64,000 nucleotides of DNA from an uncultured Devosia sp. (GCA_964498125.1 CAZCGE010000134.1:88724-152723); one strand, 5' to 3'; positions 2,119-62,357 are shown, counted from the stretch's first letter. The notes: generated by a model from the sequence alone, not told the origin. Program-made: numbers and translations.

Positions 2119-2652
2119 ATGGCCGAGGATGGATTGGGCGTTGACGGCGCCCGCGCGCAACCAGCGCGTCGAGCGACGCCGGGCCTGCTAGATATCCTGC
2201 TGCGCGCCGACGTGCTGGCGGGCCTCTTGTTCATGGCCATGGGCGCGTTGGGGCTTTACCTCGCCCGCAATCTCGATATCGGCACGGCCATACACATGGG
2301 TACCGCCTATGTGCCGCGGCTGGTCTGTTTTGCACTGCTCGGGCTCGGCCTGGCGATAACGCTCGGCGGACTGCTGCAAAAGTCAGCCGGGCGGATCGGC
2401 GGCGACGAGGAGCCGATCTCGTGGCGATCGCTGATCCTGGTCCCGACCGCCGTTTTTGTTTTTGGCTTCGCCGTGGAGCGGATCGGACTGGTCCTGGCGA
2501 TCTTGCTGGCAGTCGGCGTCGCCGGCACGGCGGCCAGCGGGCAAAAGCCCCTCGGCGTCGTGGCCGCGGCAGCCTTCCTCGTCCTGCTCTGCGTATCAAT
2601 TTTCGTCTGGGGTCTCGGCCTGCCGTTCTCCATCTGGCTGCCGGATTACTGA
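2119..2652 (+). CDS. tctB: Tripartite tricarboxylate transporter small membrane subunit TctB
   Basis: An AGGAGG ribosome-binding site sits 5 nt before the ATG at 2119. The product is a ~177 aa hydrophobic four-helix protein between tctC and tctA. The six-frame ORF beginning at 1927 is an N-terminal over-extension. Confidence 0.75.
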   Translation: MAEDGLGVDGARAQPARRATPGLLDILLRADVLAGLLFMAMGALGLYLARNLDIGTAIHMGTAYVPRLVCFALLGLGLAITLGGLLQKSAGRIGGDEEPISWRSLILVPTAVFVFGFAVERIGLVLAILLAVGVAGTAASGQKPLGVVAAAAFLVLLCVSIFVWGLGLPFSIWLPDY

Positions 2653-2653
2653 C

Positions 2654-4165
2654 ATGGACCTCATCGGCAATCTCGCCACGGGCTTTGCGGCAGCCCTGTC
2701 GCCGGCCAATCTGTTTTTTGCGCTGATCGGCTGCCTGGTCGGCACCTGCATCGGCGTGCTGCCCGGCATTGGCCCGGTGGCGACAGTGGCGATGCTGCTA
2801 CCGCTGACATTTCATCTCGATCCGCTCGCCGGCCTGATCATGCTGTCGGGCATTTTCTATGGCGCGCAATACGGTGGCTCGACCACGGCGATCCTCGTCA
2901 ACCTGCCCGGCGAGACCTCCTCGGTCGTCACCTGCATCGACGGCTATCAGATGGCGCGGCAGGGTCGGGCCGGCGTGGCGCTGGCGGTGGCCGCACTCGG
3001 CTCGTTCTTTGCCGGCACCCTCGCCACGCTGATCATTGCGCTGGCCGCCCCGCCGCTGTCCTATGTCGGCCGCTCATTCGGTGCGCCGGAGTATTTCGCG
3101 CTGATGCTGTTTGGCTTGATTGCTGCTGTGGCGCTGGCACACGGCTCGGTGCTGAAGGCCATAGCCATGATTTTCCTTGGCCTGCTGCTCGGCCTGGTCG
3201 GCACCGATCCCAGCACCGGCAATGGCCGTTTCTCCTTTGACATTCCCGTATTGGCCGATGGCATCGGCTTCGTGCCGCTGGCGATCGGCGTGTTCGGCAT
3301 CGGCGAGATCATATCCAACCTGAAACGCGGCACATCGACGACAGAGCGCTCGATTCTGGCCGAGAAGATCACCGGACTTTGGCCGACGCCGAGCGATCTT
3401 CGCCGCTGCTGGCCAGCCTGGATCCGAGGTGCGTCGCTGGGTTCCCTGCTCGGCGTACTGCCCGGCGGCGGGGCGACATTATCGGCGTTCGCCAGCTACG
3501 TGCTGGAAAAGCGCATCTCGCGCCACCCCGAGGAGTTCGGCAACGGAGCGATCGAGGGGGTCGCCGGGCCTGAAGCCGCCAACAACGCCGGCGCACAGAC
3601 GTCGTTCATCCCCATGCTGACGCTCGGCATACCAGGCAATGCCGTGATGGCGCTGATGATCGGCGCCTTGACGATCCACGGCATCCAGCCGGGCCCTCTC
3701 GTCATGAAGGAGCGACCAGACCTGTTCTGGGGTCTCATTGTCAGCATGTGGATCGGCAATCTGATGCTGCTGATCATCAATCTTCCGCTGATCGGCATCT
3801 GGGTGCGGCTGCTGCAGGTGCCGTATCACTATCTCTATCTCGCCATCCTGGTGTTCTGCGGTATCGGCGTGTACGCCGTCAACAATTCAGCCTTCGAGGT
3901 GATGCTGGCGGCCGGCTTCGGCGTGCTCGGCTACTGGCTGCGCGTGCTCAAATGCGAAGCAGCCCCCATGCTGTTGGGCTTCATCCTGGGCCCATTGCTG
4001 GAGGAGCATCTGCGCCGCTCCATGCTGATCGCGACCGGTGATCCGCTGATCTTCTTTCAGCGCCCGGTGAGCCTCGGCCTGATGCTGGCCTCCATGGCCC
4101 TGCTGATCATGCTGGCCTTGCCATCGGCACGGCGCACCCGTGCGGCGGCGTTCAAGGCGGAGTAG
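2654..4165 (+). CDS. tctA: Tripartite tricarboxylate transporter permease TctA
   Basis: The ATG at 2654 lies directly after the tctB stop. The ~503 aa polytopic product (MDLIGNLATGFAAALSPANLFFALIGCLVGTCIGVLPGIGP...) has the typical TctA N-terminus. Confidence 0.9.
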   Translation: MDLIGNLATGFAAALSPANLFFALIGCLVGTCIGVLPGIGPVATVAMLLPLTFHLDPLAGLIMLSGIFYGAQYGGSTTAILVNLPGETSSVVTCIDGYQMARQGRAGVALAVAALGSFFAGTLATLIIALAAPPLSYVGRSFGAPEYFALMLFGLIAAVALAHGSVLKAIAMIFLGLLLGLVGTDPSTGNGRFSFDIPVLADGIGFVPLAIGVFGIGEIISNLKRGTSTTERSILAEKITGLWPTPSDLRRCWPAWIRGASLGSLLGVLPGGGATLSAFASYVLEKRISRHPEEFGNGAIEGVAGPEAANNAGAQTSFIPMLTLGIPGNAVMALMIGALTIHGIQPGPLVMKERPDLFWGLIVSMWIGNLMLLIINLPLIGIWVRLLQVPYHYLYLAILVFCGIGVYAVNNSAFEVMLAAGFGVLGYWLRVLKCEAAPMLLGFILGPLLEEHLRRSMLIATGDPLIFFQRPVSLGLMLASMALLIMLALPSARRTRAAAFKAE

Positions 4166-4214
4166 GCGCGGACGAGGTCGGACCCGTCACGGCGAAGCCA
4201 TGCTCCATATGGAC

Positions 4215-4400
4215 GGGTCTGAAACGAAAGAAACGCGCCAAGACCTCGGTGCCGGGCAAACTTCCCAGGTCCGCCTACGCATCTTCCTCTACCTTTTACG
4301 CGTTACGTTATAACATTACATCGCAGTAGGCAGGGGCTGCAATGGCATCGGCGGGCGACGGCTTTCGTCATCGAGGGTCAGCGCAGCTGGTGTTTGGCTG
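4215..4400. repeat. 186-bp non-coding intergenic element, copy A. It has a ~88% identical second copy at 52344-52529.
   Basis: Direct comparison of GGGTCTGAAACGAAAGAAACGCGCCAAGACCTCGGTGCCGGGCAAACT...CGTCATCGAGGGTCAGCGCAGCTGGTGTTTGGCTG with the second locus shows near-identity. No coding frame is conserved between the copies. It is flanked by CCATGCTCC at 4198-4206 and 4404-4412. Confidence 0.8.
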
Positions 4401-4421
4401 ACCCCATGCTCCGCACAATCA

Positions 4422-5834
4422 TTACAGCGGCACCGAGATCACCGCGCGCAGGCCGCCCATGGAGCTGGTGCCCAGCGTGATATCGCCGCCATGGCTCTTG
4501 GCGATGTCGCGGGCAATGGCCAGACCCAGGCCGGTGTTGCCCTTGTCCTGGTTGCGGGCATCGTCGAGGCGGTAGAACGGCCTGAACACGTTGTCGCGCT
4601 CACCGGCCGGGATACCCGGCCCATTGTCGTCCACCTCGACACGAAGCCACGGCCCCTCTGTAGCCGCTCGGATGACCACTCGTTCTCCGAAGCGGCAGGC
4701 GTTGCTGACGAGGTTGGTGACGGCCCTCTTGAATGCATTGCGTTTCAGCGGCAGCACCAGATCGGTCATGCGACGGCGCATCTTGAGTTCAATCTGGGTG
4801 TCATAAATATGCGCCTCGATGTGGACCTCCTCGAGGAGCTGGCGCAAGCTCGCGGGCCGCGCCTCCTCGCCTCCGTCACCCTTGGCGAATGCCAGATAAT
4901 CCTCCAGCATTTGCTGCATCTCACCGATATCGGAGCGCAGCGACTTGACCCCGGGACTGTCGTCGAGCATTTCCAACTCGAGCTTGAAGCGCGTCAAAAC
5001 CGTGCGCAAGTCGTGACTGACGCCGGCCAGCATCGTCGTGCGCTGTTCGACGTGGGTGGTGATGCGATCGCGCATCTCCAAAAACGCCTGCGCCGCCTGC
5101 CGCACCTCGCGCGCCCCACGCGGGCGGAAATCCTCCGGGATCGGACGTCCCTTGCCGAACTCGTCGGCCGCCTCGGCCAGCCGCAGGATCGGCTTGATCT
5201 GATTGCGCAGGAAAAGAATGGCGACGGTCAACAGGATCACCGACGTGCCTACCATCCACAGCAAGAAGATATAGCTGTTGGAGGGATAGGTCTGGCTGCG
5301 CGTGGCCACGAAGCGCAGCACGGCATTATCGACGCGCACGCGAATTTCCACGTGGCGACTTTCTCCGACCGTATCGAGCCAGAACGGCCGATTGACGTGC
5401 CGCTGGATCTCATTTTGCAGGGCCCGGTCGAGAAGGGCGAAGAACGGCCGCGGCAGAGGCGCCGGCAGATCGCCTGCCGGCAGCACCTGCATCGACAAAT
5501 TGAGCCTGTCCCGCGCCATCTCGATCAGGCGATTGTAGTCGGATTTCTCGTTGGCCACATAGAGGTCGACCAGTGCGGCGATGTTGCGCGCGGTCGCCTC
5601 CGACAGCCGGTGCGTCACGCGCTGCCAGTGGCTCTCCATGAAAGAGAAGGCGATGACGCCCTCGAGAACGACGATCGGCGCGATGATGATGATCAGGGCA
5701 CGGGCATAGAGTCCCTTGGGCAGAAGCTCGGCGCCCAGACGAGACAGCCGCTCACGAATCCAGGCAAGCCGATTCTTCAGCGTCGGCCACATGGCCGCGC
5801 GCGGCTCTGCTGTCTCTTGTGGGACCACCGCCAT
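4422..5834 (-). CDS. EnvZ-like sensor histidine kinase with two transmembrane helices, a periplasmic loop, HAMP, HisKA and HATPase_c domains
   Basis: The 470 aa product contains the H-box VSHDLRTVLTR and the G-boxes DDNGPGIP and GLGLAIARDIAKSHGG. It sits downstream of an OmpR-type regulator on the same strand. Confidence 0.9.
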   Translation of the reverse strand: MAVVPQETAEPRAAMWPTLKNRLAWIRERLSRLGAELLPKGLYARALIIIIAPIVVLEGVIAFSFMESHWQRVTHRLSEATARNIAALVDLYVANEKSDYNRLIEMARDRLNLSMQVLPAGDLPAPLPRPFFALLDRALQNEIQRHVNRPFWLDTVGESRHVEIRVRVDNAVLRFVATRSQTYPSNSYIFLLWMVGTSVILLTVAILFLRNQIKPILRLAEAADEFGKGRPIPEDFRPRGAREVRQAAQAFLEMRDRITTHVEQRTTMLAGVSHDLRTVLTRFKLELEMLDDSPGVKSLRSDIGEMQQMLEDYLAFAKGDGGEEARPASLRQLLEEVHIEAHIYDTQIELKMRRRMTDLVLPLKRNAFKRAVTNLVSNACRFGERVVIRAATEGPWLRVEVDDNGPGIPAGERDNVFRPFYRLDDARNQDKGNTGLGLAIARDIAKSHGGDITLGTSSMGGLRAVISVPL

Positions 5835-18378: not shown

Positions 18379-18405
18379 GGGGTCAGACCCGCAGGGTCTG
18401 ACCCC
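18379..18405. repeat. REP-like perfect palindrome GGGGTCAGACCC-GCA-GGGTCTGACCCC between two operon genes
   Basis: Perfect 12-bp arms. Related copies of GGGGTCAGACCC occur at 63028-63053 and 35493-35544. Confidence 0.7.
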
Positions 18406-35470: not shown

Positions 35471-35654
35471 GTACGATGTCGGCGGATCGGTCGGGGTCAG
35501 ACGCGTCCCGCCGGAGGCGGGTGCAAGAAAGGAGGGTCAGACCCAGTGTGCGCATGTAGGTTGGGTCAAGCAAGCGCGAAGCGCGGTAGTGTCTCAGTTT
35601 GAAATCTAGCCAGGTTGCCAGGGGTGTCGCCCGCTGCCGCGAAGCACTATATGC

Positions 35655-35876: not shown

Positions 35877-36117
35877 AGGCCCCAAGGGCGAGAAGCGCCC
35901 CGCCGACGTGATCGGCAACGCCGTCAAGGTGATGAAGATCGCCACCGGCGAGGAGTCCGAGGTGCTGACCGACGACGGCAAGGACGAGGCCGCGCAGTCG
36001 CTCGGAAGGCGAGGTGGGGAAGCCCGTGCCAAGGTGCTAAGCCCAAAGCGCAGGGTTGAGATCGCGCGTAGAGCAGCTAAGTCCCGCTGGAAGACCGAAA
36101 CCGAGAAGGCAGATTAG
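35869..36117 (+). CDS. Small hypothetical basic protein (82 aa)
   Basis: The C-terminus reads GRRGGEARAKVLSPKRRVEIARRAAKSRW. It overlaps the preceding small ORF. Confidence 0.35.
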   Translation: MPKGPKGEKRPADVIGNAVKVMKIATGEESEVLTDDGKDEAAQSLGRRGGEARAKVLSPKRRVEIARRAAKSRWKTETEKAD

Positions 36118-37333
36118 CCTCCTTCTCCGTTTGCCTTCTGATGAAACCGGAAAGCATCGGGACAGCGAATTGGTATCGACCAAATCGGTTCCTGTAGATC
36201 AAGCCCTTGTCTTCGAGACGGCTTAGGTACTGCGCGACGCTGCTGCTGGAGTACTTTTTGTCGAGTACGTCCTTGGAAATGCGGATGATTTCTTGAGCTG
36301 TAAATTCCGCCTCGCAGTTTGGAAGCTGTGCTACGACTTTCAGAAAGACTCGCTGTGGATCAGAGACGAGATCCCAACGCTTAGAGAAGAAGTTCTGATC
36401 CAACTTCTGAAGCACCTGTGCGACAGGGATGACGAGTGGTTCATTTGATATGAGCTTCGCCATATATACATCAAAAGCCTCTCTACAAATATATTGGATG
36501 AAGAACGGGTATCCGCCTGAATGGTTCACGATGGCCTCAACGGACTCTGGCGTGAATTTTACGGGGCATTTTTCCTGCTGAAGGGGTACCGTGATAGCGT
36601 CACGAGATTCCTCCTCGCTGAGTCTGTCCAGCATCAGCGTATGGAACATGCGCTCGGAGTAAGTTCTCGCCTTTGTGAGCCGAGAGAACAGAGTCGGAAG
36701 GCCAGTTAGAACTAGCATGAATGGATATCCCCCCGGATGCTTCTGCACCGACTGGAACACGTCTAAAAGCAGCGAAAGCGGGTACTGATCCTTTTGTGCG
36801 TGGTCAGCCAAGTTTTGTGCCTCGTCGTAGGCAAAAATAATACCCTTGACCCCGGTCGAAGAAATCATTTTGCCAACGTGCCTGAGGACACTTTTGAGCT
36901 TGTCGGCCACAACACCTGGTGTGCCGTCGTAGATCTTTTGAAGATCGGCATACTCAAGCGGGCGCTGTTTCGTCGTCTTTTTACCGATGAATCCTATCGG
37001 CATCTCAACTTGGGTTTTTAGAAAAATAGAGCCAAGTAAAAGGGTGAGATCAGTAATTATGCGGACGACAATGCGTTCCTCGTTCAAGGTAGTTTGTTCG
37101 CTGAACTCATCCCCCGTCCAGAGCCAGCCTGCCTGTTGAGCAATGGGCTTAATGTGCCCAAGGAGCGCCGTTTTACCTACTCCGCGCAATCCCGAAAGAA
37201 TCAGATTCTGGGTGATTATGGGTTGACGGAGGAGCCGTCTAAACTCGTCCTGCTCAAGGGTTCGGCCGGCGAGATACGGAGGCGCGTGCCCAGAGCCAGG
37301 CACGAATGGGTTGGCGAAGAGATCAGGCTGCAT
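36077..37333 (-). CDS. AAA ATPase of the Arch_ATPase (PF01637-like) family with a C-terminal DUF234-type winged helix
   Basis: Walker A is LILSGLRGVGKTALLGHI and Walker B is GIIFAYDEAQNL. The product also contains GGYPFFIQYICREAFD and ends ...KGLIYRNRFGRYQFAVPMLSGFIRRQ. The gene has lower GC than its surroundings. Confidence 0.75.
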   Translation of the reverse strand: MQPDLFANPFVPGSGHAPPYLAGRTLEQDEFRRLLRQPIITQNLILSGLRGVGKTALLGHIKPIAQQAGWLWTGDEFSEQTTLNEERIVVRIITDLTLLLGSIFLKTQVEMPIGFIGKKTTKQRPLEYADLQKIYDGTPGVVADKLKSVLRHVGKMISSTGVKGIIFAYDEAQNLADHAQKDQYPLSLLLDVFQSVQKHPGGYPFMLVLTGLPTLFSRLTKARTYSERMFHTLMLDRLSEEESRDAITVPLQQEKCPVKFTPESVEAIVNHSGGYPFFIQYICREAFDVYMAKLISNEPLVIPVAQVLQKLDQNFFSKRWDLVSDPQRVFLKVVAQLPNCEAEFTAQEIIRISKDVLDKKYSSSSVAQYLSRLEDKGLIYRNRFGRYQFAVPMLSGFIRRQTEKEANLPSRFRSSSGT

Positions 37334-40149: not shown

Positions 40150-41304
40150 TCAGCCAGCGAACCGGATCTGTGCCAGATATCGCACAGCCCAGGCTTCGCC
40201 CTTGCCCTTAGCCTCCGTCTTGACGCCGGTGGGCGGCACGATGCTGCCGATCACAACGGGGGCCTCTCCGGCAGCACGCAATGCGGACAGCACCGCGTCG
40301 GCGCGCGCCTTGTCGGCCACCACCACCATGCCGATGCCGCAGTTGAAGGTGCGCAGCATTTCCGTGTCACCGAGGCGACCAGCCTTGGCGAGCCAGCCAA
40401 ATACGGCCGGTGCGGACCAGGCCGCCAGGTCGATCTCGGCGGCGACGCCGGCCGGTAGCACCCGCGGCAGGTTTTCGCTCGGGCCACCGCCGGTGATGTG
40501 CGACAGCGCCTTGATCGCCCCCTTGGCGCCGCCCGTGGCCGTCAGAGCCGCGAGCAACGGTTTGACGTAGATGCGGGTGGGGGTGAGGAGGGACTCGGCG
40601 AGGGTGGAAACGGTGTCTGACCGGAGGTCAGACACCAAGACACCAAACGGCGCCGGCGCGTCCCAGTCGAGCCCGGCTTCCGCCACCAACCGGCGCACCA
40701 GCGAATAGCCGTTGGAATGCACACCCGAGGACGGCAGGCCGATCAACACGTCGCCCACGACGATATCGTCACGCGGCAGCAACTCGCCGCGTTCGGCCGC
40801 GCCCACCGCGAAACCGGCGAGGTCGTAGTCCTTGCCGTGGTACATGCCGGGCATCTCGGCCGTCTCGCCACCAATCAAGGCCGCGCCGGCCTGCCGGCAG
40901 CCCTCGGCGATGCCGGCAATGACATCCTTCGCCACGCCCACATCGAGCCGGCCGCAAGCGAAATAATCCAGGAAAAACAACGGCTCGGCACCCTGCACGA
41001 CCAGATCGTTGACGCACATCGCGACCAGATCGATGCCGATCGTCGCGTGCCGCCCGGTGTCGATGGCAATCTTCAGCTTGGTGCCGACACCGTCATTGGC
41101 CGCCACCAGGATCGGGTCCTTGAAGCCTGCCCGCTTCAGATCGAACAGCCCGCCGAAGCCGCCCAGGTCGCCATCCGCGCCGGGTCGCCGCGTCGCGCGC
41201 GCCAAGGGCTTGATCGCCCGCACCAGCGCGTTGCCGACATCGATATCGACGCCGGCCTCGGCATAGGTGATCGGCCTGTTGCGCTCGTCGGGGGATTGGG
41301 CCAT
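40150..41304 (-). CDS. purM: Phosphoribosylformylglycinamidine cyclo-ligase (AIR synthase)
   Basis: The product reads [28 protein letters not shown]...GGFGGLFDL...[10 protein letters not shown].... The ATG at 41304 was chosen. Confidence 0.9.
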
Positions 41305-41481
41305 GAAACCTCTTGGTTTGCTTCGGATCGGCGTGCGGATCGGACTTCGCGGCTGTCGCGGTTCGCACGTGGGGATCATGCGAGCGTGGACACGGACGAA
41401 GGTATCCCAACTTCCGCCCTATTAATCGCAGGATATGTGGCGTCCTAGCAAACCAGCGAGCGGTTCAGCAACCTGCTATAT

Positions 41482-47585: not shown

Positions 47586-49778
47586 ATGGAGCAGCAGATG
47601 GCCAGCGCACGCAGCAGATCGACGGACAAGGCACAGACCACCAAGGCCGATCCGCCACAGGGCCCGGCACGATATTACAATCGCGAGTTGTCCTGGCTGC
47701 AATTCAACCGGCGCGTTTTGCAAGAGGCGCAAAACCCCAGCCACCCGGTGCTCGAGCGGCTGCGCTTCCTGTCGATTTCAGCCACCAATCTCGATGAATT
47801 CTACATGGTGCGCGCGGCCGGCATCTATGGCCAGATCGCAGCAGGCGTGACGACGCCGAGCATGGACGGTCTGACGCCGGCCCAACAGCTGGCGCAGATC
47901 AACGAATTCGTCGCCGGCCTGGTGGACGAGAAGCAGGCCTGCTGGAGGGTGCTCAAGTCGGAGTTGGCGAACGCGGATATGCATATTGTCGAGGCCGCGG
48001 ACCTGCGCGCCGGGGAGATCGCCTGGCTGGACAGCTACAAGAATCAGATCTTTCCGATCCTGACACCGATTGCCGTCGATCCCGCCCATCCATTCCCGTT
48101 CATTCTCAACAAGGGCCTGACGCTGGCCGTCGAGATGACACGGGCGCGAGACGGCAGGGCAATGAACGCGCTGATCCCAATTCCGGCACAGCTCGATCGC
48201 TTCGTGCGCCTGCCACCGTCGGGACCAAATCCCACCGAACGGCGCTTCATCCGCCTCGAATCACTGATCGGGCAGTTCATCGCGGAGCTGTTCTCGGGCT
48301 TCAAGATCAAGAGCCACGGTGCCTTCCGTGTGCTCCGCGACAGTGACATCGAGATGCAGGAGGAGGCCGAAGATCTGGTCCGTACGTTCGAAACGCTGTT
48401 GAAGCGCCGGCGGCGCGGCAACGTCATCCGGCTCGAAATCGAAGCGGACATGCCCAAACGCTTGCGGAAATTCGTCATCGACGAACTCGAAGTCAGCGCG
48501 CACTCGGTGTTCGTCAAGGACGGCCTGCTGGGCCTGACCGACACGCAGCAGATCATCGTTTCAGACCGGCCCGAGCTTGTTTTTCGACCCTACGACAGCC
48601 GCTTTCCCGAGCGCATCCGCGACTTCGGCGGCGATTGTTTCGCGGCGATCCGCGCCAAGGATATTATCGTCCACCACCCATACGAGTCCTTCGACGTGGT
48701 TGTGCAATTCCTGCGCCAGGCTGCCGCCGACCCCAACGTCATGGCGATCAAATGGACGCTGTATCGCACGTCGAAAGACAGTCCGATCATCCAACTGCTG
48801 AAGGAGGCCGTCGAGGCCGGCAAGTCGGTCACGGCCGTGGTCGAGTTGAAGGCGCGTTTCGACGAGGCCGCCAACATCCGCTGGGCACGTGATCTGGAAA
48901 GCGTCGGCGTGCACGTCGTCTATGGCTTCATCGAGCTCAAGACGCATGCCAAGCTCGGGCTGGTGGTGCGCCGCGATGGCCACGAGATCACCACCTATTG
49001 CCACATCGGCACCGGCAACTACCACCCGCAGACGGCGCGCATTTACACGGATCTGTCCTTGTTCACGACGGACCCGGCGATTGCGCGCGACGTCACCAAG
49101 GTTCTCAATTTCGTGACGGGCTACGGCCAACCGGGCGAGCTCGAAGTGATGGCGGCAAGTCCCAATGGCATCCGCCAGTTGATACTCAAGCACATCGATG
49201 AGGAAATCACCCACGCCAAGTCCGGCCGGCCGGCGGCCGTCTGGATGAAGCTCAACGCGCTTGTCGATACGCAGATCATCGAGAAACTCTACGCAGCGAG
49301 CCAAGCTGGCGTTGAAATCGACATCGTTGTGCGTGGCATTTGTTGCCTCAGGCCGGGTGTGCCAGGCATGTCGGACAATATCCGCGCCAAAAGCATCATT
49401 GGCCGATTTCTCGAGCACGCGCGCATCTATTGTTTCGGCGGCGGCGAAGACCTTCCTTCGCCCAAGGCCGCCATCTACATCAGCTCGGCCGATATGATGC
49501 AGCGCAACCTGGATCGGCGAGTCGAGGCCATGGTGCCGATCAGCAACGCCACGGTTCACGAACAGGTGCTGAATCAGATAATGGTGGCAAACCTCAAGGA
49601 CAACCAGCAGAGCTGGCGTATCAAGGCGGACGGCTCATCGGTGCGAATCGAGCCTAAAGCCGGCGAGGAGCCCTTCAATGCCCACAGATATTTCATGACC
49701 AATCCCAGCCTTTCGGGCCGGGGGCAGGCGCTGAAGGAAAGCCCGCCGCCCAGTTTCAGCCTGCCGCACACGGATTGA
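47586..49778 (+). CDS. ppk: Polyphosphate kinase 1
   Basis: The 730 aa product contains ...[21 protein letters not shown]...[17 protein letters not shown]... and a C-terminal PLD-like domain. Confidence 0.95.
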
Positions 49779-51416: not shown

Positions 51417-52322
51417 ATGGCCGAAGACCCTTATGCCGTACTGGGCGTAGCGCGAAACGCCTCGGACGAGGATATTCGCCGCGCTTTTCGCAGACTCGCC
51501 AAGGAATGCCACCCCGACCTGCATCCCGCTAACGCGACGGCTGCCGACCGGTTCAAGCGCCTGACCGGGGCCAACGACGTCGTCGGCGACCCTGTCAAGC
51601 GCCGCCAGTACGACCGGGGCGAGATCGATGCCTCCGGCGAGCCGCGCCGTGCCTATACGCATGCCTATTCCGGCCCGCGCGGCGGCCCACGCACCGCCCG
51701 GCCGGGCTCTCCGGAAGACGTCGACTTTGGCGACATCTTTTCGGATTTTTTCAGCAGCCAACGCGCCGGCCGCGCCGGTGCCTTTGCCGCCCGTGGCCAG
51801 GACGTGCGCTATACCCTCGAAGTGGAATTCACCGAGGCTGTCATTGGCGCCAAGAAACGGGTCACCATGCCCGACGGCGGAACGCTGGACCTCACGGTGC
51901 CCGAGGGCGTCATCGATGGCCAGGTTCTGCGCCTTAAGGGCAAGGGCGCCCTGGGCCTGCGCGGCGGCGAGGCAGGCGATGCGCTGGTCGAGATCAAGGT
52001 GCGGCTGCACCCGCAGTTCAAGCGCGTCGACAATGACATCGCTATCGAAGTGCCGATTACGATCGACGAGGCTGTTCTCGGCGGCAAGATCGAAGTGCCG
52101 ACCATATCTGGTCGGGTCCAACTGACGCTACCCAAGGGTACGAGCTCAGGCAAAGTCTTCCGCTTGCGCGGCAAGGGCGTGCGCAACGTTGCAGCGGGGA
52201 CGACAGGTGATCAACTCGTCAGTGTCCGCATCTCAATGCCGGAAACGATCGACGATTCGCTGTCTTACTTCTTTTCCGAATGGCGCCAGAAGCACCGCTA
52301 CGATCCGGGGCGCGGCGAGTAA
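51417..52322 (+). CDS. cbpA: DnaJ-class chaperone / curved-DNA-binding protein CbpA-like (J-domain plus two C-terminal beta domains, no zinc finger)
   Basis: The product begins MAEDPYAVLGVARNASDEDIRRAFRRLAKECHPDLHP. Confidence 0.85.
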   Translation: MAEDPYAVLGVARNASDEDIRRAFRRLAKECHPDLHPANATAADRFKRLTGANDVVGDPVKRRQYDRGEIDASGEPRRAYTHAYSGPRGGPRTARPGSPEDVDFGDIFSDFFSSQRAGRAGAFAARGQDVRYTLEVEFTEAVIGAKKRVTMPDGGTLDLTVPEGVIDGQVLRLKGKGALGLRGGEAGDALVEIKVRLHPQFKRVDNDIAIEVPITIDEAVLGGKIEVPTISGRVQLTLPKGTSSGKVFRLRGKGVRNVAAGTTGDQLVSVRISMPETIDDSLSYFFSEWRQKHRYDPGRGE

Positions 52323-52343
52323 ACATCGCGCACTGTGTGATCG

Positions 52344-52529
52344 GGGTCTGAAACGAAAGAAACGCGCCAAGACCTCGGTGCCGGGCAAACTCCCCAGGTC
52401 CACCTATGCACATTCCCCTGCTTTTGGAATGTTACGTTATAACGTTGCATATCTGAAGGCAGGGGTTGCAATTGCATCGGCGGGCGACTGCTTTCGTCAT
52501 CGAGGGTCAGCACAGCTGGTGTTTGGCTG
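52344..52529. repeat. 186-bp non-coding intergenic element, copy B (paralogue of 4215-4400)
   Basis: Same length and orientation as copy A. Contains the palindrome ACGTTATAACGT. Lies between the cbpA stop and the convergent benzoate-CoA ligase stop. Short CATCGC repeats flank it. Confidence 0.8.
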
Positions 52530-52549
52530 GCATCGCTCAGCCGGCAACT

Positions 52550-54121
52550 TCACCCCTCCTCCCTGAGTTTGAAACGCTGGATCTTGCCGGTTGCTGTCTT
52601 CGGCAGCTCGCTGCGGATCTCGACCCAGCGCGGGTATTTCCATGCACCTGCCGCGGATTTGACATGCTCCTTGAGCTCCTCGATCAGCGCATCGTCGCCC
52701 GCGGCGCCCGCTTTCAGCACGATGAAGGCCTTGGGCTTGAGCAGGCCATCGGTGTCGGCCTTGCCGATCACGGCCGCCTCCTGCACCGCTGCATGCGTCA
52801 GCAGCGCCGACTCGACCTCGAAGGGCGAGACCCAGATGCCGCTGACCTTGAACATGTCGTCGGTGCGGCCGCAGTAGACGTAGTTGCCGGCCTCGTCGCA
52901 GCGGTATTTGTCGCCGGTGTGGGTCCATTCGCCGGCGAACGTGGCGCGGCTCTTGTCGCGCTGGTTCCAGTAGCCTTCAGCCGCGGACGGCCCGCGAACC
53001 AGCAACTCGCCGATCTCGCCGTCGGGCGCGGGGCTGCCGTCGTCGAGCACGATGCGCGCATCATAGCCGGGCACGGGTTTACCGGACGTGCCATAGGCCA
53101 CCTTGCCAGACCGGTTCGAAACAAAAATGTGCAGCATTTCGGTGGAGCCGATGCCATCGATCACTTCGGTGCCAACCTTGTGCTGCCAGCGCTGGCCGAT
53201 ATCGGCGGGCAGCGCCTCGCCGGCCGAGGTCGTCAGCCGGAGCCGCGATGAACCTGCGCCCTTGCCGAGCGCCGGGCTGGCCAGCATGGCGCCGAGCAGG
53301 GTTGGAACGCCGCAGAAGATGGTCGGGTTGGTGGCCTGCATGCGCGCCATGACGCTGTCGGGCGTCGGGCGATCCGGCAGCAGAACGGCAGTGGCGCCGA
53401 CCGCCATGGGAAACGACATGGCATTGCCAAGACCGTAGGCGAAGAACAGCTTGGCGGCGGAGAAGACGACATCGTCGCTCATGAAGCCAAGCACGCCCAC
53501 CCCGAACAGGCGCGCGGTCGCCATCGGGCTCGAATGCACATGGCGGGCGCCCTTGGGGCTCCCCGTCGAGCCCGAGGAATAGAGCCAGAATGCCACTTCG
53601 TCGGCATGTGTAGCGGCGGCTTTGGCCAGCGGTGGACTGCCGGCCAGCAGCGCATCGAGGCCAAGCGCCACATCACTGCCTGGTCCGCCAACGATGATCA
53701 CGTGCAGGTGCCGGATCTTGGCGATGTCGGCGAGCGCCGGCGCCGCCTTTTCGTAGAGTTGGGCCGACACAATGACCGCTTCGGCGCGGCTGTCCTCGAT
53801 CAGAAAACGCCACTGCTCGGCAGCCATCAGCGTGTTGATGGGAACGGGAATGACACCGGCCTTGATCGCGCCCCAGAAGACGACGGGGAAATCGACGGTA
53901 TCCAGCATGATCTGCACGATGCGCCGCTCACGGCTGATACCCAGACGGGGAAGCGCGTTGGCGAAACGGTCACAGCGCTCCTGCAGCTCGCCATAGGTGA
54001 GCGTGCGCACGGGATCGATGAAAGCGGGCTTGCCCCCCCGGCCCTCTGCGACGTTGCGATCGACGAAATCGACGGCGGCGTTATAAGGCCCGGTCGGGCG
54101 CGTCCACGTGATCTGGCCCAT
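52550..54121 (-). CDS. Aromatic acid-CoA ligase (benzoate / 4-hydroxybenzoate-CoA ligase family, AMP-forming)
   Basis: AMP-binding motifs LYSSGSTGSPKGARH, ...YGTSG... and ...TGDKYRCDEAGNYVYCGRTDDMFKVSG. It lies downstream of the liv-type ABC transporter and box genes. Confidence 0.9.
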   Translation of the reverse strand: MGQITWTRPTGPYNAAVDFVDRNVAEGRGGKPAFIDPVRTLTYGELQERCDRFANALPRLGISRERRIVQIMLDTVDFPVVFWGAIKAGVIPVPINTLMAAEQWRFLIEDSRAEAVIVSAQLYEKAAPALADIAKIRHLHVIIVGGPGSDVALGLDALLAGSPPLAKAAATHADEVAFWLYSSGSTGSPKGARHVHSSPMATARLFGVGVLGFMSDDVVFSAAKLFFAYGLGNAMSFPMAVGATAVLLPDRPTPDSVMARMQATNPTIFCGVPTLLGAMLASPALGKGAGSSRLRLTTSAGEALPADIGQRWQHKVGTEVIDGIGSTEMLHIFVSNRSGKVAYGTSGKPVPGYDARIVLDDGSPAPDGEIGELLVRGPSAAEGYWNQRDKSRATFAGEWTHTGDKYRCDEAGNYVYCGRTDDMFKVSGIWVSPFEVESALLTHAAVQEAAVIGKADTDGLLKPKAFIVLKAGAAGDDALIEELKEHVKSAAGAWKYPRWVEIRSELPKTATGKIQRFKLREEG

Positions 54122-54185
54122 GTCTGTCGTCCTCCCGTTCCATCTCTTGGCGATGGCATTGTCGGGTCTCCTTCGTCGACCCGAC

Positions 54186-54920
54186 CTACACCCCCAACAG
54201 CCGGTGCATCAGGTCGGGCTCGGCCCGCAAGGTCGCCGGCGTGCCGGCGAAGGCGACCTCGCCTTTGACCAGGACAATGACTCGATTGGCAAGGCCGGCC
54301 AAGGCCTCGACATTCTTGTCGACGATCAATGTGGCGATGCCCGAAGCGCGAATCAGGCCGATTGTCCGCCAGATTTCGTTGCGAACGATGGGCGCCAGGC
54401 CTTCCGTGGCCTCGTCCAGGATCAGCAGTCCCGGATTGGTGAGCAGTGCCCGGCCTATGGCGAGCATCTGCTGCTCGCCTCCCGACAGCTGATCGCCGCC
54501 GTTATCGAGGCGCTCGGCCAAGCGCGGAAACAGCTCCAGCACGCGCGCAATCGTCCACTCGCGGCGTCCACCCTCTGGCACGCGCTCGGCAATCTCCAGG
54601 TTTTCACGCACGCTGAGCGTGGCGAAGATCCCGCGCCCCTCGGGCACATAGGCCAACCCGCGCCCGGCGATGCGGTAAGTCGCCTCGTTGGTCACATCCC
54701 TGCCTCTGATCCGCACCTCACCCTGGCGCGGTCGAACCAAGCCCATGACAGTGCGAATGAGCGTGGTCTTGCCCATGCCGTTGCGACCCATCAGGGCCAC
54801 CGTCTCCCCGGCGCCGATTTCGATCGTCACGCCGCGCAGGATGTGGCTCCGGCCGTAGTAGGTGTGCAGATCGCGAACAGCGACCAGAGGTGGCGCGCTG
54901 GGGTCTGTTGCCGCCGTCAT
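54186..54920 (-). CDS. livF: ABC transporter ATP-binding protein, LivF family
   Basis: The ATG at 54920 gives a 244 aa product with Walker A GRNGMGKTT and signature LSGGEQQMLAIGRAL. The 590 aa six-frame ORF is read-through into livG antisense. Confidence 0.9.
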   Translation of the reverse strand: MTAATDPSAPPLVAVRDLHTYYGRSHILRGVTIEIGAGETVALMGRNGMGKTTLIRTVMGLVRPRQGEVRIRGRDVTNEATYRIAGRGLAYVPEGRGIFATLSVRENLEIAERVPEGGRREWTIARVLELFPRLAERLDNGGDQLSGGEQQMLAIGRALLTNPGLLILDEATEGLAPIVRNEIWRTIGLIRASGIATLIVDKNVEALAGLANRVIVLVKGEVAFAGTPATLRAEPDLMHRLLGV

Positions 54921-55675
54921 GCCCGCCCCCCGAGGTAGGCACGCTGCACCTGCGCGTTGGCGCGGATCGCGGCCGGGGCACCGCTGGCCAGCACCGCGCC
55001 GTCGACCATCACCGTCATGGTATCGGCGACGCGGAACACGGCATCCATGTCGTGCTCGATCAGCAGCACGGCGTGATCGGCGGCGAGCTTGCGAATGAGC
55101 GTCGCCATCTCGATGCTTTCTTCGCTGCCCATGCCGGCCAGCGGCTCGTCCAGCAACAGCACCTTCGGCTGCGTGGCCAGCGCCATGGCGATCTCGAGCT
55201 GGCGCTGGGCGCCGTGCGACAGCGCCTCGGCGGGTCGCTCGTGCAGCCATTGCAGGCCAACCCTGTGCAGCGCGGCTTTGGCGTGCTCGACCAAATCGAG
55301 CCTGCTGTCGGCACGCGCCATCAAACCACCCGCTGCCTTGCGCGCCTGGGCCGCCAGGCGGGCGTTTTCCAGCACAGTCAGGCTCGGAAAGATATTGGTG
55401 CGCTGGTACGAGCGGCCAATGCCGAGCGCCGCGCGCCGCCACACCGGCTCGTGCGTCACGTCGCGGCCATCGAGCAGGATGCTGCCCGCACTCGGCGCCA
55501 GATCGCCCGACAGCAGATTGATCAATGTCGACTTGCCGGCGCCATTCGGGCCAATGACGCAATGCAGCTCGCCGACCCTCAGCGCCATCGACACGTCGCG
55601 CACGGCGTGCAGGCCGCCGAAGCGACGGCCAAGACCGCGGGTTTCGAGGACGGGGGGCGTGGCGGAGGCGGTCAT
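54917..55675 (-). CDS. livG: ABC transporter ATP-binding protein, LivG family
   Basis: The ATG at 55675 gives a product with Walker A GPNGAGKSTLINLL, signature LSHGAQRQLEIAMAL and Walker B LLLDEP. Confidence 0.9.
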   Translation of the reverse strand: MTASATPPVLETRGLGRRFGGLHAVRDVSMALRVGELHCVIGPNGAGKSTLINLLSGDLAPSAGSILLDGRDVTHEPVWRRAALGIGRSYQRTNIFPSLTVLENARLAAQARKAAGGLMARADSRLDLVEHAKAALHRVGLQWLHERPAEALSHGAQRQLEIAMALATQPKVLLLDEPLAGMGSEESIEMATLIRKLAADHAVLLIEHDMDAVFRVADTMTVMVDGAVLASGAPAAIRANAQVQRAYLGGRA

Positions 55676-55954
55676 GACCTCCTCCCATGGCGCCCGGCAT
55701 TGGCTGCGCTCTCGCGACAATTAGCCATCGCGGCAACACGTGCTGCCAACGTCGGGACCATGCCGCGTCCCCAATTTCCATCATGGCCGCGGAGGCGGCC
55801 ACCCAGGACAAGCCTCGAAAAGTGCGGTGGCGCGGGCTGAACAACGAGGTTGAGACGGAACACCAGGATTTCGTCAGCAGTATCCCTGCCGCATGGCTGG
55901 GTGGCCGCCTCCGCGGCCATGACGACGAGGAGGAAGTTGTGGCTCTTGGCGGCC

Positions 55955-56989
55955 TCAATCACCGGAGGCCTCCCCTTGGGATCGAGGGGCATCCGCATTA
56001 TCAGAACCGAATCCGACACCCTCTTTCGGCTCGGCCAGCCCCATCCAGCGCGGCAACCTCAACCCGGCCAGCCCTTTCGGCATGACCAGCACCACGACGA
56101 GAATGACCACCCCCTCGACCAGCAGCTTGCGCTCGGTGATGAGCTGGCTGGCCTCGCCCAGACCGACGAAAGCGAGCGCGCCCAGAATGGGCCCATGCAG
56201 ACTACCGAGACCGCCAAGCAGAATCATCAGCAGCGCCTCGGCCGAGCGGTGCCAGGAGACCAGCTCGGGGTTCACAAAGCCGCGGTGCATCGCCCACATG
56301 TGGCCGGCAACACCTGCCAGCGCGCCGGCGATGACGAAGGCGGCAAGCTTGTAGCGCGTCGTGTTGTAGCCGAGCGCGCGCATGCGGTGCTCGTTGACGC
56401 AGATGCCCTGCAGGACATGCCCGAACAGCGAACGCATCAGGCCCACCAAGACCAAATACATCGCTGCCAGTAGCGCGAGATTCACATAGAACACGGCAAC
56501 GGGAATCTGCCGCCGCGTCAGCGGCAGGCTCCAACCGAATGCCGCGAGCTGCGGGCGCGCCAGATAGGCCCCGTCCGTGCCACCACCAAGCTTGGTGTCG
56601 TGAAACAGGAAGAACACCATCTGGCCGAAGGCGAGCGTCACCATCAGGAAGAAAAAACCGCGCGTCCTGAGTGACAGTGCACCGACGATCAGCGCGGCGA
56701 TGGCCGCCGCCACCACGGCGGCCGGCAAGGTGATCAGAACGGACAGGCCGCTGTCGGCCGGCGTGATGGAATAAACCGTGTAGGCGGCAATCCCGTAGAA
56801 GGCGGCATGGCCGAGACTGACGAGCCCCGTGCAACCGACCAACAGTTGCAGGCTCAAGGCCAGCATTGCCGCGATCAGGGCCGTGCTGCCAAGCTCGACG
56901 TAATAGGGACGCGCGAAGACAGGCACGAGCCCGAGCAGGAGCGCGCCGGCCGCGAGAAGACCCCAGTGCATCTTTGATGCCGGCAGCAT
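55955..56989 (-). CDS. livM: Branched-chain-type ABC transporter permease, LivM family
   Basis: The 344 aa polytopic protein reads ...GHAAFYGIAAYTV.... Confidence 0.85.
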   Translation of the reverse strand: MLPASKMHWGLLAAGALLLGLVPVFARPYYVELGSTALIAAMLALSLQLLVGCTGLVSLGHAAFYGIAAYTVYSITPADSGLSVLITLPAAVVAAAIAALIVGALSLRTRGFFFLMVTLAFGQMVFFLFHDTKLGGGTDGAYLARPQLAAFGWSLPLTRRQIPVAVFYVNLALLAAMYLVLVGLMRSLFGHVLQGICVNEHRMRALGYNTTRYKLAAFVIAGALAGVAGHMWAMHRGFVNPELVSWHRSAEALLMILLGGLGSLHGPILGALAFVGLGEASQLITERKLLVEGVVILVVVLVMPKGLAGLRLPRWMGLAEPKEGVGFGSDNADAPRSQGEASGD

Positions 56990-57008
56990 GGGGCCTCAAG
57001 TCCTCGCC

Positions 57009-57881
57009 TCAGTTTGTCCGCCGGCCAAACAACCCGGCAGGCCGCCACAGCAAGACGGCTGCCATCAGCACATAGACCGCCAATCCCGCGCCCTTTGGTA
57101 CCAGCACCTTGCCCAGCGTGTCGACGACGCCGATCAGCAGTGCCGCCCAGAACGCGCCGGCGATCGAGCCCAGCCCGCCGATGACGACGACGACGAAGGA
57201 AATGATCAGGAAGCCGTCGCCCATGTTCGGATAGACCGAGTAGAGCGGGGCCGCCAGCACGCCGGCCATCATGGCCAGCGCCGTGCCGATGGCGAAGACA
57301 ACGAGGTAGATGCGGCGCGCGTCGATGCCGAGGATGTCGACCATCTCCGGCTTCTCGGATGCCGCCCGAATGACGGCGCCGAGCTTGGTGCGCTCGATCC
57401 ACAAGAACAGCCCCGCCGCCAACGCCAGACAAAAACCGATGACGAAGAAGCGATAGGCCGAATAGCTGAATCCCGCCGTGACCGGCACCGAGAAATCGAG
57501 CGCCGCCGGCACCGGCACGGAGTGGAAATCGTTGCCGACCAGGAACGATCGCGTTTCCTCGAACAGCAAGATCAGCGCGAACGTCAGCAGCACTTGGTCG
57601 AGATGCTCGCGCTTGTAGAACTGGCGGAACAGGAAACGCTCCAGAACCAGGCCAAGGGCGATGCCGGCGATGATGCCAACCGGCAAGGCCAGCCAGATGC
57701 TGCCGAAATGTTTGGTCACGAGAAACGCCGCATAGGCGCCGATCATGAACAGGCTGCCATGCGCCAGATTGATGATCCCCAGCACGCCGAAGATGAGCGT
57801 CAGCCCACTGGCGATCAGGAACAGCAGCAGGCCGTACTGCACGCCGTTGAGCAACTGTGTGGCGAAGCCGGCGAGGGTCAT
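57009..57881 (-). CDS. livH: Branched-chain-type ABC transporter permease, LivH family
   Basis: The 290 aa product begins MTLAGFATQLLNGVQYGLLLFLIASGLTLIFGVLGIINLAHG. Confidence 0.9.
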   Translation of the reverse strand: MTLAGFATQLLNGVQYGLLLFLIASGLTLIFGVLGIINLAHGSLFMIGAYAAFLVTKHFGSIWLALPVGIIAGIALGLVLERFLFRQFYKREHLDQVLLTFALILLFEETRSFLVGNDFHSVPVPAALDFSVPVTAGFSYSAYRFFVIGFCLALAAGLFLWIERTKLGAVIRAASEKPEMVDILGIDARRIYLVVFAIGTALAMMAGVLAAPLYSVYPNMGDGFLIISFVVVVIGGLGSIAGAFWAALLIGVVDTLGKVLVPKGAGLAVYVLMAAVLLWRPAGLFGRRTN

Positions 57882-57916
57882 GGTGCCAGGAAGCGTGAGT
57901 GGTGAGTGGTGGAAGT

Positions 57917-58008
57917 GCAGTGGGATGTCGGAAATCGGAATTCAGAAGTCGGAAACCATACGGTACTCGAATTTCCGATTTCCGACTTCCGATTTCCCAC
58001 TGCACTGC
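57917..58008. promoter_or_regulatory. ~92-bp imperfect palindrome with heptamer repeats (TCGGAAA / TTTCCGA) between livK and livH
   Basis: Left arm GCAGTGGGATGTCGGAAATCGGAATTCAGAAGTCGGAAACC. Right arm TCGAATTTCCGATTTCCGACTTCCGATTTCCCACTGCACTGC. It lies inside the operon, directly downstream of the binding-protein gene. Confidence 0.55.
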
Positions 58009-58023
58009 ACGTCACGCCTGCAC

Positions 58024-59217
58024 TTACGCCAGCTTACACCCCGTCCCCGGATCGGCGAGGTTCGGCGCGGCGATGCCGATCACCTTGTTCTCGCCGTTGG
58101 TGACCTTGCGCAGGTACATGTTCTGCACCACGTTTTGCGATGCCGAGAACGAGATCGGCCCGCGCGGGCTGTCGATCTTGGCGGCGCGCAGGGCCTTGTA
58201 GAGGTTGGCCTCGTCCTCGATCTTGCCCTTGACCGCCTCGAGGCCCACGGCGAGCAACTGGCCCGCGTCATAGCCCTGCACGGCGTAGACGTCGGCATCG
58301 CGGCCGGCCTTGTCCTTGAAGGCCTTGCGGAACGCCGTGTTCTTGGCGTTGTCGATGCCGTCGCCGTAGTGCAGCGTGGTCTCGATGCCCTCGGCCGCGG
58401 CGCCCTGCGCGCCGAGCGTGCCCTCGGTCAGGAAGCCGGCGCCGCACAGCGGCACCTTGATGCCGGCCGCCGCGTACTCCTTGACGAACTGCACGGCGGC
58501 GCCACCGGCGAAGAACGCTCCGACGACCTCGACACCGAGGCCCTGGATCTGCGCTAAGAGCGGCTGGAAGTTGGTCTGTGGGAACGGCAGTTTCAATTCC
58601 TGCACGACCTGGCCGCCCGTGCTCTCGAGCCCCTGTTTGAAGCCGGCGCCCATGTCGTTGCCAGCCGCGTAGTCCCAGGTGATCCAGGCCGCTTTCTTGA
58701 TGCCCTTCTTGCCGAGCGTGAGCCCCATGCCGTAGGTCGTCTGCCAGTTCGAGAACGACGTGCGGAACACGTTCTTGGCACACTCGGCGCGGGTAATGAC
58801 GTCATTGCCCGCATTGGGAATGATGGTCAGCGTGCCGCTTTCCTTGACCACCTTGTGGATGCCCATCTGCACGCCGGAATGCACGGTGCCGATCAGCACG
58901 TCGACGGCATCGCGCTTGACCATGCGGTCGGCGTTCTGCGGCGCGTTCTCGGGCTTGGACTCGTCATCGAGCTTGATGATCTGCACCTCGCGACCGCCGA
59001 GCTTGCCGCCCTTTTCCGCGATCAGCAGCTCGACGGCGAACGTGATGTTCTCGCCAAGCTTGGCGAAGGTACCCGAGTAAGGCAGCATCAGCCCGACCTT
59101 CAACGGCTTGGCCTGGGCGATGGCCCAACCGGTCGGCACTGCACTGGCGACGGCGGCGGCGCCGGCGCCTTGCAGCAGGCCACGGCGCGACGGCACGATT
59201 CTCGTTCTTGAAGACAT
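58024..59217 (-). CDS. ABC transporter periplasmic substrate-binding protein (LivK / type-I PBP family), probably for aromatic acids
   Basis: An AGGGAGG ribosome-binding site precedes the ATG at 59217. The product has a Tat-like signal (MSSRTRIVPSRRGLLQGAGAAAVASAV). It is the first gene of the transporter set next to the box genes. Confidence 0.85.
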   Translation of the reverse strand: MSSRTRIVPSRRGLLQGAGAAAVASAVPTGWAIAQAKPLKVGLMLPYSGTFAKLGENITFAVELLIAEKGGKLGGREVQIIKLDDESKPENAPQNADRMVKRDAVDVLIGTVHSGVQMGIHKVVKESGTLTIIPNAGNDVITRAECAKNVFRTSFSNWQTTYGMGLTLGKKGIKKAAWITWDYAAGNDMGAGFKQGLESTGGQVVQELKLPFPQTNFQPLLAQIQGLGVEVVGAFFAGGAAVQFVKEYAAAGIKVPLCGAGFLTEGTLGAQGAAAEGIETTLHYGDGIDNAKNTAFRKAFKDKAGRDADVYAVQGYDAGQLLAVGLEAVKGKIEDEANLYKALRAAKIDSPRGPISFSASQNVVQNMYLRKVTNGENKVIGIAAPNLADPGTGCKLA

Positions 59218-59304
59218 TGATCTTCCTCCCTTTGATTTCCAACGGTTTCTTGTGCGGCCGTGGCACACTATGGCCTTTTGCAGAGCCAAGATGCGAGCCC
59301 GAAC

Positions 59305-61345: not shown

Positions 61346-61451
61346 GCGAACCGATTAATCCTCCAACCCTTGCTGAGGGAGCAGACTTCCGCCCCTCACC
61401 CTAACCCTCTCACCATCGCGCGTACAGGGCGATGGTGAGAGGGGATGTCTC

Positions 61452-62308: not shown

Positions 62309-62357
62309 CGATCGCCTCCAATGCCTGTGTCGGCGTGGTCATGGGCCTCCAACCTAT

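Follow-up and report, generated by a model that had tools for sequence, protein, structure and literature searches.

Two 186-bp non-coding repeats of an uncultured Devosia sp. are probable REP-targeted palindromic elements

Background

A stretch of DNA of 64,000 nt from an uncultured Devosia sp. (GCA_964498125.1 CAZCGE010000134.1:88724-152723), hereafter called the window, carries the same 186-bp sequence at two places, positions 4215-4400 (copy A) and 52344-52529 (copy B). The question raised by this locus is what kind of element has come to lie twice in gaps between unrelated genes. A preliminary description of the window offered three candidates, namely a small RNA (sRNA) family, an element resembling miniature inverted-repeat transposable elements (MITEs), and a bidirectional terminator module. 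With moderate confidence, we regard the two copies as dispersed, non-coding and non-autonomous palindromic repeats, which are targeted to repetitive extragenic palindromes (REPs) and fall into the class that comprises REPs, bacterial interspersed mosaic elements (BIMEs), REP doublets forming hairpins (REPINs) and MITEs. Judged by sequence comparison, the element is a member of a multi-copy family whose ends are conserved while the interior varies, it holds a fixed position in the arm of an REP in two lineages with CTGA at its junctions, and it has no coding capacity.

Two copies of a non-coding element with sharp boundaries

The two copies lie in the same orientation and were found to be identical at 163 of 186 positions (87.6%) when aligned without gaps by MAFFT (BLASTN E=1e-63), in agreement with the identity of about 88% reported before. 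Searching the 64-kb window by low-stringency BLASTN and with an nhmmer profile gave no third copy. When the two regions are read in the same register, the identity falls from 0.88 in the core to 0.20-0.25 in each 60-nt block of the flanks, which indicates sharp element boundaries and excludes a segmental duplication. A duplication of one intergenic region, for which the preliminary description had considered that the flanking genes might be included, would suit the fact that just two copies are visible in the window; it is refuted, and its probability is negligible, because the flanks are 20-25% identical, the flanking genes are unrelated and about 33 further loci exist in metagenomes.

Six-frame reading revealed that each frame is stopped in at least one copy and that none is open in both, as the preliminary description had claimed; the 186-bp element is non-coding. 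The 23 differences between the copies are mostly central, with identities of 100% at positions 1-48, 74% at positions 49-125 and 95% at positions 126-186 of the element. The first segment, a left module of 48 nt, is the same in copy A (4215-4262, plus strand) and copy B (52344-52391). Its first 15-20 nt or so, GGGTCTGAAACGAAA(S)AAA, are common to the metagenome family, as seen at the left ends of two metagenome loci, L008 and L023. At the other end lies a right-end module, CTTTCGTCATCGAGGGTCAGCGCAGCTGGTGTTTGGCTGACCCC, at 4362-4405 in copy A (plus strand) and 52491-52534 in copy B (nhmmer E=6e-16 and 1.5e-14; inverted-repeat search), which holds the hairpin GGGTCAGC/GCTGACCC and is kept in about 33 metagenome copies. 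The earlier observation that the divergence is central and the ends are conserved therefore stood, both by the segment identities and across lineages.

The element belongs to a family dispersed in metagenomes

A metagenome scan with a right-end 20-mer gave 39 loci; six of them were chance matches within coding sequence, leaving about 33 true copies. These copies have in common the last 44 nt or so of the element, and nearly all of them are located at the end of a contig, as is typical of a multi-copy repeat at which assemblies break. The Logan contig carrying the window's own cbpA ends 29 nt into copy B. At the locus of the ppa gene, the element is present in all three samples and three independent contigs break in the repeat, and for the gene at the left flank of L008 five contigs were found, all terminating before or at the REP. 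Contigs from Logan, JGI and ENA with neighbouring genes break off inside the repeat.

Two metagenome contigs, L008 and L023, span a whole copy, which is there about 305 bp long; L023 is the sole complete metagenome copy with both flanks. Their sequence agrees with the element of the window at the left in GGGTCTGAAACGAAA, at the right in TTTCGTCATCGAGGGTCAGCGCAGCTGGTGTT..CTGAC and nowhere else; the interior is unrelated. Ends kept across lineages around a swapped interior are expected of a non-autonomous element that is recognised via its ends, and an interior replaced in relatives is the reverse of what an RNA gene would conserve.

The closest non-self match of the window's CbpA is 78% identical, and the named matches are metagenome-assembled genomes (MAGs) labelled 'Hyphomicrobiaceae bacterium'; the Ppa of the metagenome host is 81% identical to a protein of a 'Hyphomicrobiaceae bacterium' MAG. 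Both hosts appear, from these protein matches, to be poorly sampled Hyphomicrobiales. The element had no BLASTN match in the PLSDB plasmids or the INPHARED phages and no match in the IMG/VR viral contigs. Its left 20-mer gave one chance match, in a coding region, across 185,579 representative genomes, and its motif strings occurred in the full-text literature only in unrelated primers. As these collections and Rfam hold no match, the family seems to be undescribed, although the kind of repeat is ordinary and already known.

One further observation was made upstream of ppa (L049, positions 1-100): the 5' region of this pyrophosphatase gene holds the heptamer ACTCCCT six times in tandem, and CACGACC(C/T) units are repeated there as well.

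Position of the element within REP-type palindromes

The window also contains REP-like sequence that is not occupied by the element. A palindrome of 27 nt, GGGGTCAGACCC-GCA-GGGTCTGACCCC, is located at 18379-18405, 7 nt past the stop of a gene. Two partial arms, GGGGTCAGACGC and GGGTCAGACCC, start at 35493 and 35533 (35493-35544), just past an SPFH-domain gene, and a partial REP, GGGGTCAGACCCGCAGGACCCC, at 63031-63050 adjoins the stop of a gene on the minus strand (63058-63969). This palindrome and the partial arms belong to the REP family of the host, and copy A is nested in an REP of that family. The right arm of the unoccupied palindrome reads GGGTCTGA|CCCC, and its two halves are those found at the two junctions of copy A. 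A left remnant of the host hairpin, TCGGACCCGTC followed after 23 nt by GACGGGTCTGA (11 nt, 91% complementary), is present at 4174-4222, and copy A reads GACGGGTCTGA|AACGAAAG ... TTTGGCTGA|CCCCATG, the element starting at the left with AACG. Removal of the insert restores GGGTCTGACCCC, a match of 12/12 to the right arm of the solo palindrome.

The same arrangement was observed in the metagenome organisms, which have a solo palindrome of their own, GGTGTCAGACCC-TSA-GGGTCTGACACC, i.e. GGGTCTGA|CACC. The full copies in L008 and L023 read GGTGTCAGACCCTSAGGGTCTGA|AACGAAAC ... GTTCGACTGA|CACC, and the conserved left end of the family is GGGTCTGA|AACGAAAS. The position of the element within the 3' arm can be written as GGGGTCAGACCC-GCA-GGGTCTGA^CCCC for the window and GGTGTCAGACCC-TSA-GGGTCTGA^CACC for the metagenomes. 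By this alignment, the element was shown to lie in two lineages at the same site in the 3' arm of each lineage's own REP variant. The 4 nt past the right CTGA follow the REP type of each lineage, being CCCC in the window and CACC in the metagenomes.

CTGA is found at both junctions: TCTGA stands directly 5' of the left end in copies A and B, L008 and L023, and CTGA terminates the element in copy A and in nearly all metagenome copies. The right module itself is an REP-like hairpin, GGGTCAG-loop-CTGAC, and in one metagenome variant (L040) the right end carries a complete REP. Solo palindromes with both arms were found five times in 220 kb of metagenome loci, and one of the five is that at the right end of L040. 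The metagenome copies have an REP at the left and an REP-variant hairpin at the right, and the termini of the metagenome element form a perfect 8-nt inverted repeat, GGTGTCAG...CTGACACC, which is the REP itself. In the window copies no inverted repeat was found at the homology boundary or by the direct repeats that are described below. The preliminary description had recognised the conserved ends correctly; it had overlooked that these ends are pieces of an REP-type hairpin, of which the window also holds an unoccupied copy.

Several other sequences of the window and the metagenome loci resemble the REP or the ends of the element. Within purM (40150-41379, minus strand), an REP-like palindrome, GGTGTCTGACCGGAGGTCAGACACC then AAGACACC, lies in frame in the AIR-synthase gene at 40613-40650, and the AIRS_C match of this gene is 179 residues long for 150 profile positions, suggesting that sequence has been inserted; by its sequence the palindrome looks like an intragenic REP, as in other bacteria. 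Within ppk, positions 48471-48515 weakly resemble the right-end module (TTCGTCATCGA..GTCAGCGC..GGTGTTCG; nhmmer E=0.018), and a 12-nt left-end match lies 90 nt away on the opposite strand; the resemblance to the right-end module is probably due to chance. In L013 (about 620-700) and at the same site in L027 and L034, the 43-nt right-end module stands alone between inverted arms, ATTCCCCTG and CAGGGGAAT. This lone module adjoins a gene like an ISAs1-family transposase, as read from translated open reading frames (ORFs), which is apparently truncated in L027 and L034.

Adjoining the partial REPs at 35.5 kb is an ORF (36077-37333, minus strand) of low third-position GC content (GC3) resembling an AAA_16 ATPase. 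Positions 60509-63058 form a gene-poor region of 2.5 kb with low-GC3 ORFs that have no or a weak Pfam match, and the rest of the window is of high GC3. These two regions may be foreign DNA.

Direct repeats around the two copies

Each copy is flanked by direct repeats of 9 nt on the plus strand. Around copy A the repeat CCATGCTCC occurs at 4198-4206 and again, as an exact match, at 4404-4412, with a spacing of 206. Around copy B the left repeat CATCGCGCA (52324-52332) and the right repeat CATCGCTCA (52531-52539) match at 8 of 9 positions, with a spacing of 207. The flanking repeats listed in the preliminary description are thus real and more regular than had been noted; the CATCGC around copy B extends to these 9 nt. 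At random sites of the window the probability of an exact 9-mer repeat is 0.027 and that of a repeat with at most one mismatch at a spacing of 205-207 is 0.018; the joint chance of the repeats at A and B, a post hoc calculation, is about 5e-4.

These repeats bear on the view that the element is a MITE derived from an insertion sequence (IS) and moved by a DDE transposase. The moved unit would then be about 197-198 bp long (4207-4403; 52333-52530) with a 9-bp target-site duplication, and the REP-like ends would be degenerate terminal repeats. Both pairs of direct repeats, exact in A and 8/9 in B with their low joint chance, speak for it, as do the perfect 8-nt inverted repeat at the ends of the metagenome element, the fitting size (a core of 186 bp, about 305 bp in metagenomes, below about 600 bp) and the lack of coding capacity. 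However, the bases between repeat and core are non-homologous and of unequal length, 8 nt in A and 11 nt in B at the left, 3 nt and 1 nt at the right, and they form no inverted repeat, which argues against a simple target-site duplication. The outermost bases have no inverted repeats, L023 has no convincing duplication abutting the ends of the element, and neither the window, the metagenome loci, the plasmids nor the phages yielded a parent IS sharing these ends. Among the three candidates of the preliminary description the MITE-like element nevertheless comes closest: the multiple copies, conserved ends, variable interior and contig breaks agree with it, and what it lacks are clean terminal inverted repeats (TIRs) abutting a duplication and a parent IS.

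A second, possibly related kind of repeat was noticed directly past the end of the REP or element, where 2-5 tandem units of GACACC plus 2-9 flanking bases occur, e.g. GACACCAGATCTCC GACACCAGACCTCC. Such tandems were seen in the right flank of the element in L007, L010, L011, L015, L018, L024 and L030-L033 and at the solo REPs of L025 and L033. A mirror-image pattern stands left of the REP in L023. With the 9-nt repeats, these tandems keep the DDE-type MITE alive as an unlikely explanation.

Folding, RNA and terminator signals

Both copies are long imperfect palindromes around an AT-rich palindromic centre. In copy B the centre, ATGTTACGTTA/TAACGTTGCAT at 52429-52450, forms the apex of a long hairpin, and a degraded equivalent is present in copy A at 4302-4319. 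We rejected on inspection the readings of this central palindrome as an attC, an IHF site or a LexA box. The fold z-scores were +0.4 for the plus and -2.2 for the minus strand of copy A, and -4.3 (-88.9 kcal/mol) for the plus and -1.4 for the minus strand of copy B. Such values suit a palindrome at the DNA level, better kept in B and decaying in A, and not an RNA structure maintained on one strand.

If the element were a gene family for a regulatory sRNA, each 186-bp copy would contain a promoter and a terminator of its own. The conserved ends would suit such a gene, and so would a T-rich stretch at the 3' end of the minus strand and a minus-strand consensus fold in which 10 pairs change between A and B without being broken (9 one-sided and 1 compensatory); with only two sequences, from which the structure was itself derived, this covariation test is powerless. 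But Rfam gave no match, neither for the whole window at the gathering threshold nor for copy A at E<=10, and the metagenome element matched miRNA-precursor hairpins only below the threshold, as expected of a generic long hairpin. Within the two copies, consensus scans of both strands detected neither a sigma-70-type promoter nor a hairpin-plus-T-run terminator. Since the z-scores also disagree between copies and strands, and since the metagenome relatives retain the ends alone with the whole interior replaced, an sRNA family, the first candidate of the preliminary description, was not borne out and is highly improbable.

As described previously, and as verified by Pfam, both copies sit in gaps between convergent genes, and the two gene pairs are mutually unrelated. 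Copy A begins 49 nt after the stop of a TctA gene (2456-4165, plus strand) and ends 21 nt before the stop of a HAMP/HisKA/HATPase kinase gene (4422-5834, minus strand). Copy B begins 21 nt after the stop of a DnaJ/CbpA gene (51417-52322, plus strand) and ends 20 nt before that of an AMP-binding CoA ligase gene (52550-54121, minus strand). The CoA ligase gene heads a minus-strand cluster (52550-60534) with a branched-chain-type ABC transporter and a Fer4/FAD/NAD-binding reductase. We take this reductase to be BoxA-like, which would agree with the label 'benzoate-CoA ligase' given to the ligase earlier.

According to a heuristic ORF call, about 20 of 32 metagenome loci have the stop codon of a convergent gene at most about 60 nt from the right end, and the other copies, about a third, face gene starts or long gaps. 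Such placement downstream of genes can be accounted for by where the REP targets lie or by selection that removes harmful insertions. It would also suit a bidirectional intrinsic terminator module selected in convergent gaps, given that both window copies lie between convergent genes, that the metagenome right ends mostly face a nearby stop codon and that GC-rich hairpins are present. Yet the scan detected a stem followed by a T-run on neither strand of either copy; as read from the sequence, the sole T-rich tract belongs to the minus strand and is preceded by a 5-bp stem that contains an A.C mismatch. With about a third of the metagenome copies placed elsewhere, the terminator candidate of the preliminary description was not borne out either, and we give it hardly any probability. 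Given its location 10-60 nt beyond stop codons, the element is likely to be co-transcribed and to form a hairpin of the 3' untranslated region. An influence on RNA 3' ends, if there is one, would be incidental and not a dedicated terminator or sRNA function.

Search for an enzyme and for empty sites

Several results weigh against the view that the element is a repeat targeted to REPs, and they are gathered here. Some concern the palindromes: copy B is without the left REP arm and has CTGG at its right junction, the left REP arm of copy A is split by a 23-nt loop, no GTAG or CGTC tag abuts the palindrome (a GTAG stands 7 nt upstream of the one at 18379), and the stem and loop geometry is unlike that of the described REP superfamilies. 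The solo REPs could also be deletion remnants of elements, so that the direction would be the opposite one. The near-equal spacing of the 9-nt repeats is not predicted by a site-specific or an HUH mechanism.

Other such results concern an enzyme. No Y1, IS110 or other transposase was identified by Pfam among the 49 ORFs of the window, and tblastn with queries for the REP-associated tyrosine transposase (RAYT) and the IS200 TnpA, a crude probe, found nothing in about 350 kb of sequence. The orientation of the element relative to the local GC skew, a weak proxy, was positive at 11 of 25 loci and so without bias, which means that the lagging-strand signature of IS200/IS605 elements is absent.

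Finally, no empty/occupied polymorphism was recovered at the locus of a CbpA relative, at the ppa locus in three samples or in the left-flank contigs of L008, so that mobility is inferred only, and just two copies of the window-type subfamily are known. At the CbpA relative, which is 76% identical, synteny stops right after cbpA and neither element nor REP is there.

In one metagenome locus (L004, positions 1-1064), a beta-carbonic-anhydrase-like gene lies between two inward-facing right ends of the element together with a solo REP, a layout like that of a REPtron. This bracketed gene was considered as a RAYT and rejected, since its motifs are those of a carbonic anhydrase and the layout contains no transposase.

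Proposed mechanism and significance

For a repeat targeted to REPs, we suggest that the element would be placed by sequence- or structure-specific joining at CTGA in the REP arm, by an enzyme presumably supplied in trans. The leading candidate, to which the evidence points weakly, would be a Y1/HUH single-strand transposase of the RAYT or IS200-IS605 type. Next might come an IS110-type recombinase, which likewise leaves a short shared core and no inverted repeats.

REPs are known to be targeted by IS110/IS1111 elements. The element could be a non-autonomous derivative of an IS110/IS1111-type or other site-specific recombinase system that integrates into REPs at a CTGA core, possibly with a guide (bridge-like) RNA. 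The identical 4-nt core at both junctions, the junction without terminal inverted repeats or target duplication and the REP-specific target in two lineages are consistent with such an origin. However, no DEDD or other recombinase gene was found among the tested ORFs of the window, no promoter across the hypothetical right-left junction was found on inspection or by scan, and there is no Rfam match; the left end common to the subfamilies, about 20 nt, is short for a guide-RNA gene. We consider this derivation very unlikely.

A bolder version of the REP-targeted repeat is that it represents an undescribed type of hairpin-bounded non-autonomous transposon in uncultured Hyphomicrobiales. A Y1/HUH enzyme or a guide-RNA-dependent recombinase would cut such a transposon at C^TGA and join it there, within the 3' arm of the REP; its interior would be swapped between lineages while the 44-nt right-end recognition module is kept, and the flanking repeats of 9-13 nt together with the GACACC tandems would be footprints of joining. 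This version seems to us doubtful, and we mention it as a speculation. If true, it would provide a traceable mobilisation system for alphaproteobacterial REPs.

Whatever the enzyme, the element is an ordinary kind of repeat, the common "junk/mobile" DNA of bacteria, and not a new regulatory system. Its practical importance is that the repeat family breaks assemblies in several independent data sets and that the element could be mis-annotated as an sRNA or a terminator. The most interesting point is the same REP-arm insertion site in two poorly sampled Hyphomicrobiales lineages, with the enzyme behind it. If copy counts and the partner enzyme turn up in a complete genome, the family would become a tractable case for the spread of alphaproteobacterial REP-type repeats.

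Comparison with known systems

The Tn3-derived inverted-repeat miniature elements (TIMEs) are of similar size, and copy B starts with GGGGTCTGA, which we presume to be the first 9 nt of the Tn3 inverted repeat. The resemblance was judged coincidental and this family was rejected, as only 9 nt match the 38-bp repeat (GGGG...TAAG), the two ends do not form inverted repeats of 38 bp and a 5-bp duplication is missing. The palindrome-associated transposable elements (PATEs) of the IS200/IS605 group are closer in that the junction has no terminal inverted repeats or duplication, a hairpin is present near the right end and, in both window copies as in L008 and L023, the left end directly follows a fixed TCTGA. 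In contrast to them, the left-end hairpin is not conserved between the subfamilies here, there is no orientation bias with GC skew and no TnpA was found in the tested ORFs of the window.

The MITEs of the Correia and ERIC type are non-coding, intergenic sequences of about 130-350 bp with conserved ends, which form an imperfect palindrome and are co-transcribed with their neighbours. Our element is like them in size, lack of coding capacity, conserved ends, overall imperfect palindrome and intergenic site. It differs in having no clean TIRs abutting a target duplication of fixed length and no known parent IS.

The alphaproteobacterial REPs tagged by CGTC (Di Nocera et al. 2013, PMC3733652) have comparable hosts and a comparable placement, being located mostly downstream of genes, between convergent or co-directional genes, and they include intragenic copies, with which the palindrome in purM may be compared. 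No dedicated transposase is known for them, and some families are regularly inserted within small palindromic targets (PMC3733652). Their geometry consists of an unpaired CGTC/TGTC head, a stem of 8-9 bp starting with A/T, a loop of 4-5 nt and a CCA tail (PMC3733652), unlike the palindrome here with its arms of 12 bp and loop of 3 nt.

In the REP/BIME/REPIN group, short GC-rich extragenic palindromes occur singly or paired around a linker, and the whole unit can fold as a long hairpin; like our element, these units are non-coding, lie mainly downstream of genes and have variable linkers. Those of E. coli and Pseudomonas are mobilised by Y1 transposases, RAYT or TnpA_REP. The present element departs from them in its linker of 150-260 nt, which is itself palindromic, in the lack of a GTAG tag, in its two end hairpins, which differ by indels, and in that no RAYT was found among the 49 tested ORFs of the window. 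A REPIN consists of two REPs plus a spacer (PMC3337134). REP hairpins in single-stranded DNA are bound by the TnpA_REP of E. coli, whose cleavage site is C^T, with the consensus CC^TGAT at one iREP site (PMC3333891), to be compared with the C-TGA junctions here. This enzyme recombines REPs with linkers and so gives rise to variable linkers and copy numbers, and REP pairs indeed have variable linkers (PMC3333891). By analogy with these systems, the element would seem to work most like the REP/BIME/REPIN units.

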